Sequence record: OP870146.1
DNA length: 64,000 nt
Strand: one strand, 5' to 3'
DNA from: Escherichia phage vB_Eco_F27
In this document: piece by piece, positions 15,451 to 32,387 of the stretch
Numbering within the stretch: position 1 is the first letter of the stretch
How the letters are laid out: each line of letters opens with the position of its first letter
Notes under the pieces: model-generated
Seen by the model: the letters and a program-made list of their open reading frames with translations, nothing else
Told to the model about the DNA's origin: nothing
Databases searched by the model: none
Translations under genes and position numbers: made by a program

Positions 15451-17219
15451 AACCTGAAGAAATGAAATCCATGCGTAGAAATAAGGTCATTGCCGATAAT
15501 AAACCACAAAAAGTAGCTGCTGTTGCAGCTACCGATTCATTAGAAGCATTGAATAACATTTCATCAAAACTAGACGATGTCCAAGCCGCGTCTGAACTCA
15601 CATCACAAAGTGTAGAAGATAAAGGCAATGGAATCATTGAATCAATTGGAGACTTAAAGAATTCGACAGATAATACTGCTGAAGGCACAGAGCTTATCGC
15701 AGAAGTTATTGAAAAACAAACTGAAGTCACTAAAAGTATAAACGAAGTTTCTAGTGCAATAAGCTCTAAGTTAGACCGATTAGCTACATTATTAGAGCAA
15801 AAATTACAAACATCTACCGCTATTCAAAATACAGGAGGCACCTCTCTTGAAGTAATTGAGAACGCAATACCTGTTAAAGTGGTTGAGAATGAAACTTCTG
15901 ATGAGTTGTTTAAAGCATTCCCTACACCTGAAAAGATTGATAATAAGCCAGACGAAGATTTCTTCCCAGCGCCGGTTCAAGAAAGTGCTAATTCTACTTC
16001 CGATTCTAAAGGCGGAATTAGCTTTAAATTGAGCGATAAAATTGCAATGCTCACCAAAACAGTTCAAACCGGGTTTAATAAATCAATATCAATTTCAGAC
16101 AGAATTGCTGGAATGCTTTTCAAATACACTATAACGGCTGCTATTGAAGCAGCAAAAATGGCCGCACTTATTCTTGGTATTGTTATCGGTATTGATTTAT
16201 TGATAGTCCATTTCAAATATTGGACAGACAAGTTCACTTCTGCCTGGGATTTATTTGATGAAAACTTTACTAAATTCTCCGATGAAGCTAAAGAGTGGGG
16301 TAAATTCTTAAGTGATATATTCACTTCTATTGACTCGATAAAACAAATGTGGGAAGCTGGAGACTGGGGTGGTTTAACCGTTGCTATTGTCAAAGGTGTA
16401 GGAACAGCATTAATGAACTTAGGTGAACTAATTCAATTAGGAATGGCTAAACTCTCTGCGTCTATATTGCGTGCTATAGGTTTTGGCGATACCGCAGACG
16501 AAATAGAAGGACGTGCTTTAGAAGGATTCCAAGAAACTACTGGGAACAAATTAAAGAAAGAAGACCAAGAGAAAGTCGCTAAATATCAAATGAAGCGTGA
16601 CGATGGGGAATTAGGAACCGTTTCTAAAGGTCTTGATATGTTACAACGTGGCAAAACATTCGTTACTAACTGGGTTCGTGGTAATGACAATAAAGAAGAG
16701 TTTAGTACAAGCGATGAGCGTGCTGCGGAATCGGCAAAATTAAAAGAGTTACCTGAAGAGGAGCGTAAAGAGGCGTATATAAAAGCTAATGAAACTCGTG
16801 CGGCACTGGTTAGATTTGAGGATTATATCGATAAAATCGATATGACTAATCCGGAAAATGCTAAAAACGTCGAGAAGTCTTATGCTGATTTAAGTAAACT
16901 TATTAAAGACCCTGAACTTAATAAAACTCCTGTTGTTAAAAAGGAATTAGATGCTAGATTTGAAAAGCTAAATAATAAAATGGCTGAAGCCAAAAAGGCT
17001 CAGACAACAGTTAAGCCTGAATCTTCGTCTAAATCTCCGGAAGCAAAACAAGTTCAGTCAATAGAGAAAGGACGTGCTTCTGAATCTAAACAACAGCAAC
17101 CGGTAGCGGCGATTAGTAACACAAATAATGTCGTCAAAAAGAATACCGTAGTCCAGAATATGACCCCTGTAACAAGTACAACGGCTCCTGGAATTTTCCA
17201 TGCCACCGGTGTTAATTAA
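15447..17219 (+). CDS. 29: baseplate hub / tail length determination protein gp29
   Basis: ORF track 590 aa; synteny and size. Confidence 0.85.
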   Translation: MKPEEMKSMRRNKVIADNKPQKVAAVAATDSLEALNNISSKLDDVQAASELTSQSVEDKGNGIIESIGDLKNSTDNTAEGTELIAEVIEKQTEVTKSINEVSSAISSKLDRLATLLEQKLQTSTAIQNTGGTSLEVIENAIPVKVVENETSDELFKAFPTPEKIDNKPDEDFFPAPVQESANSTSDSKGGISFKLSDKIAMLTKTVQTGFNKSISISDRIAGMLFKYTITAAIEAAKMAALILGIVIGIDLLIVHFKYWTDKFTSAWDLFDENFTKFSDEAKEWGKFLSDIFTSIDSIKQMWEAGDWGGLTVAIVKGVGTALMNLGELIQLGMAKLSASILRAIGFGDTADEIEGRALEGFQETTGNKLKKEDQEKVAKYQMKRDDGELGTVSKGLDMLQRGKTFVTNWVRGNDNKEEFSTSDERAAESAKLKELPEEERKEAYIKANETRAALVRFEDYIDKIDMTNPENAKNVEKSYADLSKLIKDPELNKTPVVKKELDARFEKLNNKMAEAKKAQTTVKPESSSKSPEAKQVQSIEKGRASESKQQQPVAAISNTNNVVKKNTVVQNMTPVTSTTAPGIFHATGVN

Positions 17220-28332: not shown

Positions 28333-28641
28333 TTACATAAGAAGCAAACGTTCTACAGGAGTACCATCAACCGAAATTACTTTATCAAGGCGGAAAGAAC
28401 GCCACTGACCTAACTCGGTATCGAATGCTCGAACTGATTCACGAGGTTCAGAACGAACTTCTGTTGATGGGTTACTATTTTCATATTTGACTTCAAGTTC
28501 ATCGCGGGAGGCAAACATCGTACGAACATCACCGTTAGCCTTTTCAAATACAACACAATGAACGCCTACAGACAGAATAGTTTTAATACGTTCACGAAGA
28601 ACCATAGTTTCTTGTTCAGTTAAAATCATATTATTCACCAC
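28333..28641 (-). CDS. hypothetical protein (31.1 position)
   Basis: ORF track 102 aa. Confidence 0.5.
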   Translation of the reverse strand: MVNNMILTEQETMVLRERIKTILSVGVHCVVFEKANGDVRTMFASRDELEVKYENSNPSTEVRSEPRESVRAFDTELGQWRSFRLDKVISVDGTPVERLLLM

Positions 28642-29212
28642 AAAAGTTTCGGATTTGTTCCCAATTCAGAGAACGAAGATTATTACGAGAGTACTGAATT
28701 ACTTCAATACCGGCTTGTTTTAGAATGTCTGCCCAATTTTCAGGAGATCTGTCATATAATTCTGCGTATACAACCTTTTTAATACCTGACTGCGTAATAG
28801 CTTTAGTGCAATCAGGACATGGAGAAAGTGTCGTATACAACGTAGCACCTTCAATAGAATTACCTTTACGAGCTGCAAACAAAATTGCATTCAATTCCGC
28901 ATGGATTTCGTTATTAGCAGACCATGCACTATGAGCAGCCCGATGTTCTTTAGCCAAAACAAAATTATCCACCCGTCCAAATGCTGTAGTGCCTTCTTTA
29001 GGCCCAGCAACGATGACCGGGCTTGGTTTATTCTTCAACCAACCGTTTTCGGATGCATGTTCGCAACAGTTTGTACCACCTGAAGGAGAGCCATTATAAC
29101 CTGTAGAAATAATGCGTCCATCTTTTTCAATGACGGCACCAACTTTCCATGAACAACATTTTGATTCTTGAGAAATCAAATAAGCAATTTGAAGATATGT
29201 GCTAGCTTTCAT
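28631..29212 (-). CDS. cd: dCMP deaminase
   Basis: ORF track 193 aa; zinc deaminase motifs HAE...PCxxC. Confidence 0.9.
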   Translation of the reverse strand: MKASTYLQIAYLISQESKCCSWKVGAVIEKDGRIISTGYNGSPSGGTNCCEHASENGWLKNKPSPVIVAGPKEGTTAFGRVDNFVLAKEHRAAHSAWSANNEIHAELNAILFAARKGNSIEGATLYTTLSPCPDCTKAITQSGIKKVVYAELYDRSPENWADILKQAGIEVIQYSRNNLRSLNWEQIRNFCGE

Positions 29213-30204
29213 TATTGAACCTTATTAATATAAGTTAACAGCTCTTTAGTTTGTTCCCAACTGATGCACGCATCGGTAACGGAAACGCCATAGGACATAT
29301 TATCAGAAATTTTTTGATTTCCTTCATGTAGGAATGATTCTATCATAATTCCTTTGACCAAATCATTAGCTGCTAAATTTTTACCAATACCAATTTGATT
29401 GCTATAATGCCCAGCAGCGTTTGCATGGCTACAGTCAACCATTACATAATGATTCAGACCTACTGCACTTGCTTTGTTAGAAGCTTCTTGAATATCAGAA
29501 GAATGATAGTTCGGGCCGTTAGTCCCGCCACGCAATACGATATGCGTATTCTGATTACCTTCAGCTTCAACAATGCCTACAGTACCATCGACGTCCATAC
29601 CCATATACCGATGAGGCCAGGCGGCACTATACATCGCGTCTGTAGCTACTTTAATAGAACCATTGGTTGCGTTCTTGAAGCCTACGCACATCGGTAGACC
29701 TGAAGCAATTTCACGATGTGTCTGACTTTCAGTCGTACGGGCGCCAATAGCAACCCATGAGAAAATACCAGAAAGATACTTAATCGTGAATGGGTCTAAT
29801 ACTTCAGTTGCTAATGGAAGTCCCATACGTAGAAGTTTACGACACAATGTTCGTGCAACTATAAGACCGTGGTTCATATCAAAACTTCCATCAAGATATG
29901 GATCATTTACAAGACCTTTCCAACCTACGGTAGTTCGAGGCTTTTCAAAATAAACGCGCATCACTAACAGAACATTAGGAAGACGAGTTTGAAGTTCAGC
30001 CAGACGTTTGCCGTATTCAACAGCAGCAATAGGGTCATGAATTGAACAAGGACCTACAACAATAAGTTTGCGTGGGTCTTCACCGTTCATAATCGAATTA
30101 ACTTGTTCGCGATGAGAAGCCACTTGTGATGCGTAAGCTTCCGACAAAGGAATAATCTCAGCCAGTTCTTTTGGAGAAATAAGTTTTCCGACGACAGGTA
30201 ACAT
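29212..30204 (-). CDS. 3-deoxy-D-arabino-heptulosonate-7-phosphate (DAHP) synthase, AroG/F/H-like class I
   Basis: ORF track 330 aa; signature blocks LIVVGPCSIHDP, KPRTTVGWKG, GARTTESQ, CSHANA, ESFLHEGNQ, TDACISWE align with E. coli AroG catalytic/metal residues; ATGA coupling to cd. Confidence 0.85.
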   Translation of the reverse strand: MLPVVGKLISPKELAEIIPLSEAYASQVASHREQVNSIMNGEDPRKLIVVGPCSIHDPIAAVEYGKRLAELQTRLPNVLLVMRVYFEKPRTTVGWKGLVNDPYLDGSFDMNHGLIVARTLCRKLLRMGLPLATEVLDPFTIKYLSGIFSWVAIGARTTESQTHREIASGLPMCVGFKNATNGSIKVATDAMYSAAWPHRYMGMDVDGTVGIVEAEGNQNTHIVLRGGTNGPNYHSSDIQEASNKASAVGLNHYVMVDCSHANAAGHYSNQIGIGKNLAANDLVKGIMIESFLHEGNQKISDNMSYGVSVTDACISWEQTKELLTYINKVQ

Positions 30205-30324
30205 AACAATCCTTAGGAGATATAAACAGATTCTGATTCAACAATACCTTTAACCGGATTAGACAGGCTAAGTTGGTAGTGCTCAGATTTATGACCATTC
30301 TCGATAGTAATGAGATAGCTCTCA

Positions 30325-30561
30325 TTATAGTGTTCCATATACTCGAGTTGCTTCAACTAAACCGTCACTGCCTAATTTAAGGCTAGTAATCTGGTCACCA
30401 TCTTTAGGATTAACAATTATGAGAAAAGAACGTGGAGATTCTTGAATAACTCGTAATGTTGCATCCTGGAAACGTTCAGACACTTTATTGATGAGTGCTT
30501 GAGCAAATTCTTTTACTTTAATCTGAAATTCGTGTACTGTAATTGGGTTTTCACTTAGCAT
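30325..30561 (-). CDS. hypothetical protein (cd.x position)
   Basis: ORF track 78 aa; early-type promoter 30590-30619. Confidence 0.45.
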   Translation of the reverse strand: MLSENPITVHEFQIKVKEFAQALINKVSERFQDATLRVIQESPRSFLIIVNPKDGDQITSLKLGSDGLVEATRVYGTL

Positions 30562-30589: not shown

Positions 30590-30619
30590 ATAGTATCACA
30601 ACTCCACCATGTTGTAAAC
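30590..30619 (-). promoter_or_regulatory. T4 early-type promoter
   Basis: GTTTACaacatggtggagttgtgaTACTAT on minus strand. Confidence 0.5.

Positions 30620-31300: not shown

Positions 31301-31301
<1 letters not shown>
31110..31301 (-). CDS. hypothetical protein (cd.x position)
   Basis: ORF track 63 aa. Confidence 0.45.

Positions 31302-32387
<1,086 letters not shown>

Follow-up and report, generated by a model that had tools for sequence, protein, structure and literature searches.

Aromatic biosynthesis has its committed, feedback-controlled valve in DAHP synthase (3-deoxy-7-phosphoheptulonate synthase), of which Escherichia coli has Phe-, Tyr-, and Trp-sensitive forms, AroG, AroF, and AroH. 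The KPRT motif, which binds the phosphate of erythrose-4-phosphate (E4P), tells DAHP synthases from 3-deoxy-d-manno-octulosonate 8-phosphate (KDO8P) synthases. The inhibitor site of AroG has been described in detail: P150L, S180F, and F209A/S enzymes are feedback resistant, Q151 and S180 bind the main chain of the inhibitor, and a salt bridge made by D155 stabilizes the pocket (PMC9529685). Among phages, the DAHP synthase gene is already known and annotated in over a hundred genomes. We analyzed one copy, DAHPS, in a 64,000-nucleotide stretch of Escherichia phage vB_Eco_F27 (OP870146.1), referred to below as the window. It encodes an intact type Iα DAHP synthase, as seen from sequence identity, catalytic residues, and fold. 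As an explanation of all the observations, we think it fairly probable that this is a competent enzyme of a phage clade, accessory and made early, whose feedback pocket has been rebuilt so that it is probably deregulated and feeds chorismate.

An intact type Iα DAHP synthase

A reading of this DNA made from its letters alone (the sequence-only reading) had proposed a complete class I DAHP synthase over the whole length of the open reading frame (ORF), and profile searches bear this out. NCBIfam TIGR00034 (aroFGH) matches residues 6 to 327 with 427 bits (cutoff, 173.2), NF009395 scores 454.8 bits (cutoff, 343), and the protein also matches PF00793 (DAHP_synth_1) with an E value of 7e-75 (251.8 bits; cutoff, 25.5). 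The nearest sequences with solved structures are E. coli AroF (6AGM, 353 bits), followed by Neisseria meningitidis DAH7PS and E. coli AroG. All six motifs quoted in the sequence-only reading are found in the translation: LIVVGPCSIHDP, KPRTTVGWKG, GARTTESQ, CSHANA, ESFLHEGNQ, and TDACISWE.

To map catalytic residues, we aligned E. coli AroG, AroF, and AroH with proteins from phages of five genera. The metal tetrad is kept as C53, H260, E289, and D311 (AroG Cys61, His268, Glu302, and Asp326), so that the loss of catalytic metal ligands, which the sequence-only reading had named as one result that would overturn it, is not seen in the alignment. The phosphoenolpyruvate (PEP) ligands R83, K88, G154-A155-R156, K177, and R225 correspond to AroG Arg92, Lys97, Gly163-Ala164-Arg165, Lys186, and Arg234, and the KPRT motif is conserved as K88-P89-R90-T91 within EKPRTTVGWKG. 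The metal, PEP, and KPRT residues are invariant across all of the homologues surveyed (127/127). An AlphaFold2 (AF2) model built from a 56-sequence alignment (predicted local distance difference test score [pLDDT], 94.2; predicted template modeling score [pTM], 0.92) shows a (β/α)8 barrel to which an N-terminal extension and a β6a/6b hairpin are added, the extra strands lying at residues 198 to 203 and 209 to 214. In a Foldseek search the model superimposed on the N. meningitidis and E. coli DAH7PS structures 4HSO, 1GG1, and 1KFL with a template modeling (TM) score of 0.96 and a root mean square deviation of 1.4 Å. The predicted reaction is the metal-dependent condensation of PEP and E4P to DAHP and inorganic phosphate.

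We considered KDO8P synthase, or another member of PF00793, as the identity of the protein and rejected it: only four models, all for DAHP synthase, appear among its NCBIfam matches and none for KdsA (KDO8P synthase), and the KPRT, metal, and PEP residues are present. The protein could also have kept the chemistry of the PEP-aldolase family with a shifted substrate, for example, by turning arabinose-5-phosphate or another phosphosugar into a KDO8P-like product. PF00793 does cover KDO8P synthases as well, and phage relatives make arabinose-5-phosphate (PMC13326640). Nevertheless, the best NCBIfam models are all for DAHP synthase, KPRT and every E4P, PEP, and metal residue are invariant, and a scan of phage against bacterial sequences returned no clade-specific substitution within the active site, leaving a shifted substrate very improbable.

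The inhibitor site is rebuilt across the phage clade

The N terminus of the window protein has 8 residues fewer before the conserved Pro than that of AroG and 9 fewer than that of AroF, and its C terminus is about 5 residues shorter than that of AroG, in agreement with the sequence-only reading, which had called both termini shorter. Alignment with E. coli AroG, AroF, and AroH also reveals two internal deletions, one of 5 and one of 2 to 3 residues. A longer N terminus from an upstream start was rejected, there being no in-frame start before the upstream stop, and all phage orthologues begin M-L-P-V-V. Since the phage copies all start 8 to 9 residues later than AroG or AroF, they lack the equivalents of AroG Asp6/Asp7 and AroF Asn8, which, judging by the AroG-Phe structure, contact the inhibitor from the partner subunit.

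The window protein carries I141, K142, G146, and P171 at AroG positions 150, 151, 155, and 180, and the same residues occur in 97 to 100% of the phage clade. The signature P-I-K-P-G at AroG positions 147, 150, 151, 180, and 211, together with an N terminus of 8 to 12 residues, was found only in 29 phage-clade proteins among 127 sequences. At the same five positions, 87 of 95 bacterial matches read P-P-Q-S-G and the other 8 deviate at one to three positions (E. coli AroG is MPQSS, and AroH is MGQSS); no bacterial sequence surveyed has fewer than 16 residues ahead of the conserved Pro. A divergent phage-clade member on metagenomic contigs (P0022) has the signature PPKPG and an N terminus of 12 residues and lies in a T4-like context but not beside cd, which suggests an intermediate or relocated form.

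Clade-specific positions, defined as those fixed differently in at least 90% of phage and at least 85% of bacterial sequences, numbered seven: P150I, Q151K, D155G, L156I, S180P, F209Y, and T223A. Five of them (P150, Q151, D155, S180, and F209) are published inhibitor-contact or feedback-resistance positions, an overlap with a hypergeometric P value of 3e-7 (2e-5 without D155). When the window protein was compared with the inhibitor pockets of the Phe-, Tyr-, and Trp-sensitive enzymes, it fell outside that group, with the N-terminal residues gone and four pocket residues replaced. From these substitutions and the missing N-terminal residues, we predict a loss of inhibition by Phe, Tyr, and Trp; the phage enzyme is most likely insensitive to this feedback. 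Altered allosteric control, which the sequence-only reading had offered as a guess from the termini, is strongly reinforced at the sequence level now that the inhibitor-contact residues of the N terminus are seen to be missing and P150, Q151, D155, and S180 to be replaced.

Loss of feedback is not the only way in which such a pocket could arise. The effector site might have been rewired rather than switched off, making the enzyme allosteric to another infection-relevant ligand, such as a nucleotide, chorismate or prephenate, or some other metabolite. If function had simply been lost, one would expect the pocket positions to drift, whereas the changed residues (I, K, G, P, Y, and A) are 97 to 100% fixed across phage genera that share only 57 to 77% identity, and the β0 and β6a/6b scaffold is kept. 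However, conservation of the whole pocket does not significantly exceed that of random residue sets (P = 0.08), the pocket residues also lie at the dimer interface, so that structural constraint may explain their fixation, and rewiring comes without a candidate ligand. We regard it as unlikely and retain the predicted insensitivity to Phe, Tyr, and Trp as the preferred reading of the pocket.

An old phage lineage in a shared genomic slot

The sequence-only reading had left it to phylogeny whether the gene is host derived or belongs to a phage clade, and the latter is the case: phage DAHP synthases were monophyletic in 200/200 neighbor-joining (NJ) bootstraps, and no bacterial enzyme is more than 53% identical; the closest come from mixed taxa (Planctomycetota, Kiritimatiellota, Pseudomonadales, and enterobacterial AroF). 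Identity of the window protein to E. coli AroF, AroG, and AroH is 51, 47, and 43%, respectively. The G+C content at third codon positions (GC3) is 0.29 in DAHPS, 0.25 in cd, and 0.32 in pseT, compared with 0.50 to 0.57 in E. coli aroF, aroG, and aroH. Ratios of nonsynonymous to synonymous substitution (dN/dS) against relatives range from 0.14 to 0.21, with dS saturated for distant pairs. The gene is found between pseT and cd in other phages as well, namely, Kanagawavirus Entb_45, Winklervirus X20, Marfavirus PhiKpNIH-6, Bragavirus PM2, and one T4-like contig from a metagenome. Taken together, monophyly, low identity to bacterial enzymes, phage-like GC3, dN/dS, and the shared slot indicate that DAHPS has long resided, under selection, in T4-like phages of enterobacteria and is not a recent host capture. 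Recent capture from E. coli in particular was rejected on the identities, GC3, and the monophyletic phage clade.

In the NJ tree, the sister group of the phage clade consists of two bacterial sequences (P0108 and P0118) with the signature PAGPG. One of these, P0118, is a bacterial DAHP synthase on a JGI contig, in a uvrY-uvrC-pgsA neighborhood, whose unusual PAGPG pocket includes Ser180→Pro. The grouping could reflect convergence or point to a donor lineage; as these sequences are possibly attracted to the phage clade by the shared S180P, we draw no conclusion about a donor.

DAHPS lies on an accessory cassette

Comparison of the cd-pseT locus across T4-like phages supports the proposal, made in the sequence-only reading, of an auxiliary gene gained in this interval: other T4-like genera have DAHPS in the same slot, and in the window it lies on an accessory cassette that is missing from T4 and RB69. 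In RB69, cd.2 adjoins cd directly (NC_004928, 15743..16503), and in silico removal of the cassette from the window recreates this cd.2|cd junction with 2 mismatches in 100 nucleotides. An imperfect direct repeat, ATAATGA(G/A)AGCTA(T/G)C(T/A)CAT, with 17 of 20 positions matching, stands at the cassette ends around TAATGA.

A 41-amino-acid ORF forms the upstream end of the cassette and marks the upstream recombination junction. It aligns best with Cd.2 of the Kanagawavirus/Marfavirus type (SYLITIE...VESxSVY), better than with the resident cd.2, whose 3′ end it overlaps; an ATG lying within that resident gene, in another frame, keeps it open. This resemblance indicates import from another T4-like phage; we infer that the donor had the order cd.2-DAHPS-cd and that a short stretch homologous to the 5′ end of cd served for entry.

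A probe for the junction found cd.2|cd intact in 11 Mosigvirus-level records (two of RB69, ECO111 5-P, JK36, JK42, moha, and five of mar005P1) and split in two places, as expected with the cassette present, in about 139 records. Polymorphism extends even to one named species, mar005p1. Closely related cassette-plus and cassette-minus phages thus exist in nature, and the absence of the cassette from RB69 and about ten other Mosigvirus records makes the gene accessory. This natural presence and absence also gives an easy experimental handle.

Such variation would suit a passenger that is carried along neutrally and plays no part in infection: presence and absence of DAHPS vary among near-identical Mosigvirus isolates, and the pseT-cd region is known for variable small ORFs. 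A passenger would be hard to reconcile, however, with the dN/dS values given above, a fully ameliorated composition, an invariant active site, a position that is syntenic across at least five genera, and the predominance of records with the cassette over those with an intact junction. We consider neutrality highly doubtful and the selected-resident reading preferable.

The RB69 reference has a peculiarity of its own at this locus. Its cd is annotated with 510 nucleotides (169 amino acids; 15743..16252), compared with 582 nucleotides (193 amino acids) in the window and in T4, and is followed by a 76-nucleotide gap before 31.1. The short cd may reflect a frameshift or a sequencing error in the reference, and sequence errors have been reported for other RB69 genes (PMC13326640).

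Neighborhood and predicted expression

The window is from a Mosigvirus, an RB69-like T4-type coliphage, and the 5 kb around DAHPS matches many genomes of Escherichia and Shigella phages at 97 to 98% identity. Mosigvirus synteny agrees with the location given in the sequence-only reading, the pseT-cd early region of a T4-like phage. Gene order, on one strand throughout, is pseT, four small ORFs, cd.2, the 41-amino-acid ORF, DAHPS, cd, 31.1, 31, and rIII (Table 1). The small cd.x ORFs that it placed here in T4 are indeed present: the pseT-cd interval of T4 holds cd.5 to cd.1 and no DAHPS, and cd.1 sits in the equivalent slot. Two details of the sequence-only reading needed correction. DAHPS is on the minus strand, and its junction with the dCMP deaminase gene, described as an ATGA overlap, is TAATG. 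Translation of DAHPS may be coupled to that of cd through this overlap.

Table 1. Features of the pseT-cd region in the window
Feature	Coordinates	Strand	Remarks
gene 31.1 homologue	28333..28641	-	WYL_2 / SH3 beta-barrel domain; PF10902, 4.5e-10
cd, dCMP deaminase, 193 aa	28631..29212	-	PF00383, 2e-26; annotation of syntenic APCEc01 locus; directly downstream of DAHPS
Cassette, 1,113 bp (Cd.2′ relic plus DAHPS)	29209..30321	-	Pairwise alignment with RB69, where it is absent
TAATG stop/start junction, DAHPS-cd	29210..29214	-	Last A of TAA is the A of the cd ATG; 1-nt overlap
DAHP synthase coding sequence, 330 aa	29212..30204	-	ATG at 30204, stop at 29214-29212; phage-clade type Iα (3-deoxy-7-phosphoheptulonate synthase)
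Shine-Dalgarno sequence AAGGA	30210..30214	-	5 nt upstream of the DAHPS ATG; read from sequence
41-aa ORF (47 aa from TTG at 30356)	30213..30338	-	Foreign Cd.2 relic (C-terminal half); DUF7320 positions 43-76, phrog_15876
cd.2 (DUF7320, 78 aa), resident copy	30325..30561	-	PF24005, 8e-36; RB69 Cd.2 97% identical; first gene after the promoter
Early promoter-like site, GTTTACA-N17-TACTAT, extended -10 TG	30590..30618	-	Consensus scan; cd.3-cd.2 intergenic region
pseT, polynucleotide kinase/phosphatase	31301..32200	-	ORF plus syntenic annotation; upstream boundary of the variable interval

The region of the candidate promoter aligns with the stretch between cd.3 and cd.2 in T4, where the early promoter Pe133295 is annotated, and is conserved in RB69 also. 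Given this alignment, cd.2-DAHPS-cd is probably transcribed early, from the counterpart of Pe133295. The other sites from generic promoter and terminator scans were dropped as not enriched over shuffles, and only the Pe133295-homologous site was kept. The gene 31.1 homologue is wrongly annotated as a tail fiber protein in several related GenBank records.

Distribution and known copies

A tblastn search detected DAHPS in 212 phage records, 139 of them at least 95% identical and one, phage p000y, 100% identical. Among the matches listed, other Mosigvirus records are 97.9 to 99.7% identical and other genera 58 to 77%. The protein matches PHROG 5045, categorized as “moron, auxiliary metabolic gene,” with 604 bits (residues 1 to 330 against profile positions 8 to 337 of 341). 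Many phage records already name the product phospho-2-dehydro-3-deoxyheptonate aldolase, DAHP synthetase, or aroF, while some call it a hypothetical protein, and passages in two genome papers use the name DAHP synthetase (PMC11845039, PMC8022965). The novelty implied by the sequence-only reading was therefore set too high, and with the gene catalogued in GenBank and PHROG 5045, the value of the finding is limited to regulation and physiology. Two things are new relative to the literature searched and together make for a modest surprise: the feedback pocket has been rebuilt at specific sites throughout the clade, and the cassette shows a clean presence/absence polymorphism.

Several records at the margins of this distribution deserve mention. 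DAHP synthase homologues that are 35 to 38% identical occur in unrelated phages (Aeromonas phage HJ05, OQ594355.1, 79 kb; human fecal phage contigs MT837410.1 and MT838377.1) and are probably independent acquisitions. Two records of 13 to 24 kb labeled “Acinetobacter phage MD-2021a” (CAKLQH020000056.1 and CAKLQH020000043.1) contain two aroF-like genes with 45 to 48% identity and look like bacterial contigs misbinned as phage. Conversely, a 99%-identical cluster labeled “[Escherichia coli]” at NCBI (P0001) lies on a 170,875-bp contig that is a Mosigvirus genome within a bacterial assembly.

These phages divert ribulose-5-phosphate to nucleoside diphosphate (NDP)-arabinose for DNA containing arabinosylated 5-hydroxycytosine (PMC13326640). 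DAHPS might accordingly serve mainly as a sink for E4P, PEP, or both, shifting flux to pentose phosphates for nucleotides or for arabinosyl DNA modification. Its place among genes of nucleotide metabolism fits such a role, as does the presence of an arabinose-5-phosphate isomerase in many of the genera that carry it. Co-occurrence is not strict, however. RB69 has arabinosylation genes and no DAHPS; 57 Acinetobacter phage records have the isomerase, while only 4 Acinetobacter records hit DAHPS, weakly, and the two listed are 13- to 24-kb contigs from a single metagenomic phage bin with 45 to 48% identity; and Klebsiella phages of the Marfavirus type have DAHPS, which is present in 25 Klebsiella phage records, whereas Klebsiella is outside the top ten genera of isomerase hits. 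Draining E4P would also, we reason, be stoichiometrically wasteful for pentose synthesis. An E4P or PEP sink as the main role seems quite unlikely to us. An obligatory link between DAHPS and the arabinosyl-5-hydroxycytosine modification was rejected, since co-occurrence with the isomerase (RB69p055) is only partial among the matches listed; a statistical association with the isomerase is possible, and so is a general role in redirecting flux.

Discussion

We postulate that T4-like enterobacterial phages evolved their own DAHP synthase lineage, in which the feedback site was rebuilt and then frozen, leaving an enzyme that is either deregulated or responsive to a new, infection-specific effector and that controls the entry of carbon into the chorismate pathway. 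On balance we consider this probable. In the mechanism we envisage, the enzyme would be made early, from the Pe133295 counterpart, as part of a cd.2-DAHPS-cd message. It would keep its whole active site, while the amino acid pocket, specifically, was rebuilt, so that Phe, Tyr, or Trp would no longer shut it off. An infected cell might be unable to express or derepress its own aroF, aroG, and aroH, and the phage enzyme would then keep the committed step into chorismate, which controls the flux, open whatever the levels of aromatic amino acids. Products fed by this step would include those amino acids and cofactors made from chorismate, such as folate and quinones. The sequence-only reading had found it hard to see what a lytic phage gains in this way; the gain we suppose follows the usual logic of auxiliary metabolic genes.

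Several observations weigh against this proposal. The β0 segment and the β6a/6b hairpin, the regulatory scaffold, persist, and the substituted pocket residues are near-invariant within the phage clade across genera, which keeps a repurposed effector site a live alternative. Since RB69 and some ten further Mosigvirus records propagate in the absence of DAHPS, any benefit must be conditional. For the rest of the shikimate pathway, the phage depends on host enzymes, which could limit flux. Overall, sites in the promoter scan were not enriched over shuffles (18 sites, compared with 21 expected), and a full-text literature search turned up phage copies in annotation-level mentions only, with no study of their biochemistry, expression, or fitness.

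If the proposal is true, the concept of auxiliary metabolic genes, familiar from marine cyanophages, would extend to T4-like phages of gut and sewage, and chorismate-derived metabolites would be indicated as limiting during infection. The phage clade would also offer natural DAHP synthase variants, predicted to be feedback resistant, for engineering of the shikimate pathway.

Comparison with known systems

The aldolase genes of Mosigvirus, Kanagawavirus, Winklervirus, Marfavirus, and Bragavirus in GenBank and PHROG 5045 are the same gene in the same pseT-cd position, and they differ from the window copy in nothing of substance. Beyond phages, E. coli AroF (6AGM/6AGL) is the best match of solved structure, at 51% identity. 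The two share the metal, PEP, and E4P residues, an AroF-type Pro at AroG position 147 and Gly at position 211, and a triosephosphate isomerase (TIM) barrel with β0 and β6a/6b additions. Unlike AroF, the phage enzyme is encoded by a lytic phage, lacks nine N-terminal residues, including Asn8, carries Pro151→Ile, Gln152→Lys, Asp156→Gly, and Ser181→Pro (AroF numbering), has two short internal deletions and a shorter C terminus, and has a GC3 of 0.29 rather than 0.50. AroG (1KFL/1GG1) is 47% identical and has the same catalytic machinery.

Cyanophage genes of carbon metabolism (talC, CP12, and zwf/gnd) set the precedent of a lytic phage that encodes one flux-controlling, host-type enzyme to reprogram the infected cell. 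The pathway, hosts, and enzyme family are different, and the analogy is functional only. Engineered feedback-resistant AroG enzymes (P150L, S180F, D146N, and Q151 variants) offer a closer parallel at the inhibitor site, in that the phage protein is naturally substituted at feedback-resistance positions. In contrast to the engineered variants, its resistance is a prediction, and its changes are natural, multiple, fixed in the clade, and combined with N-terminal truncation.

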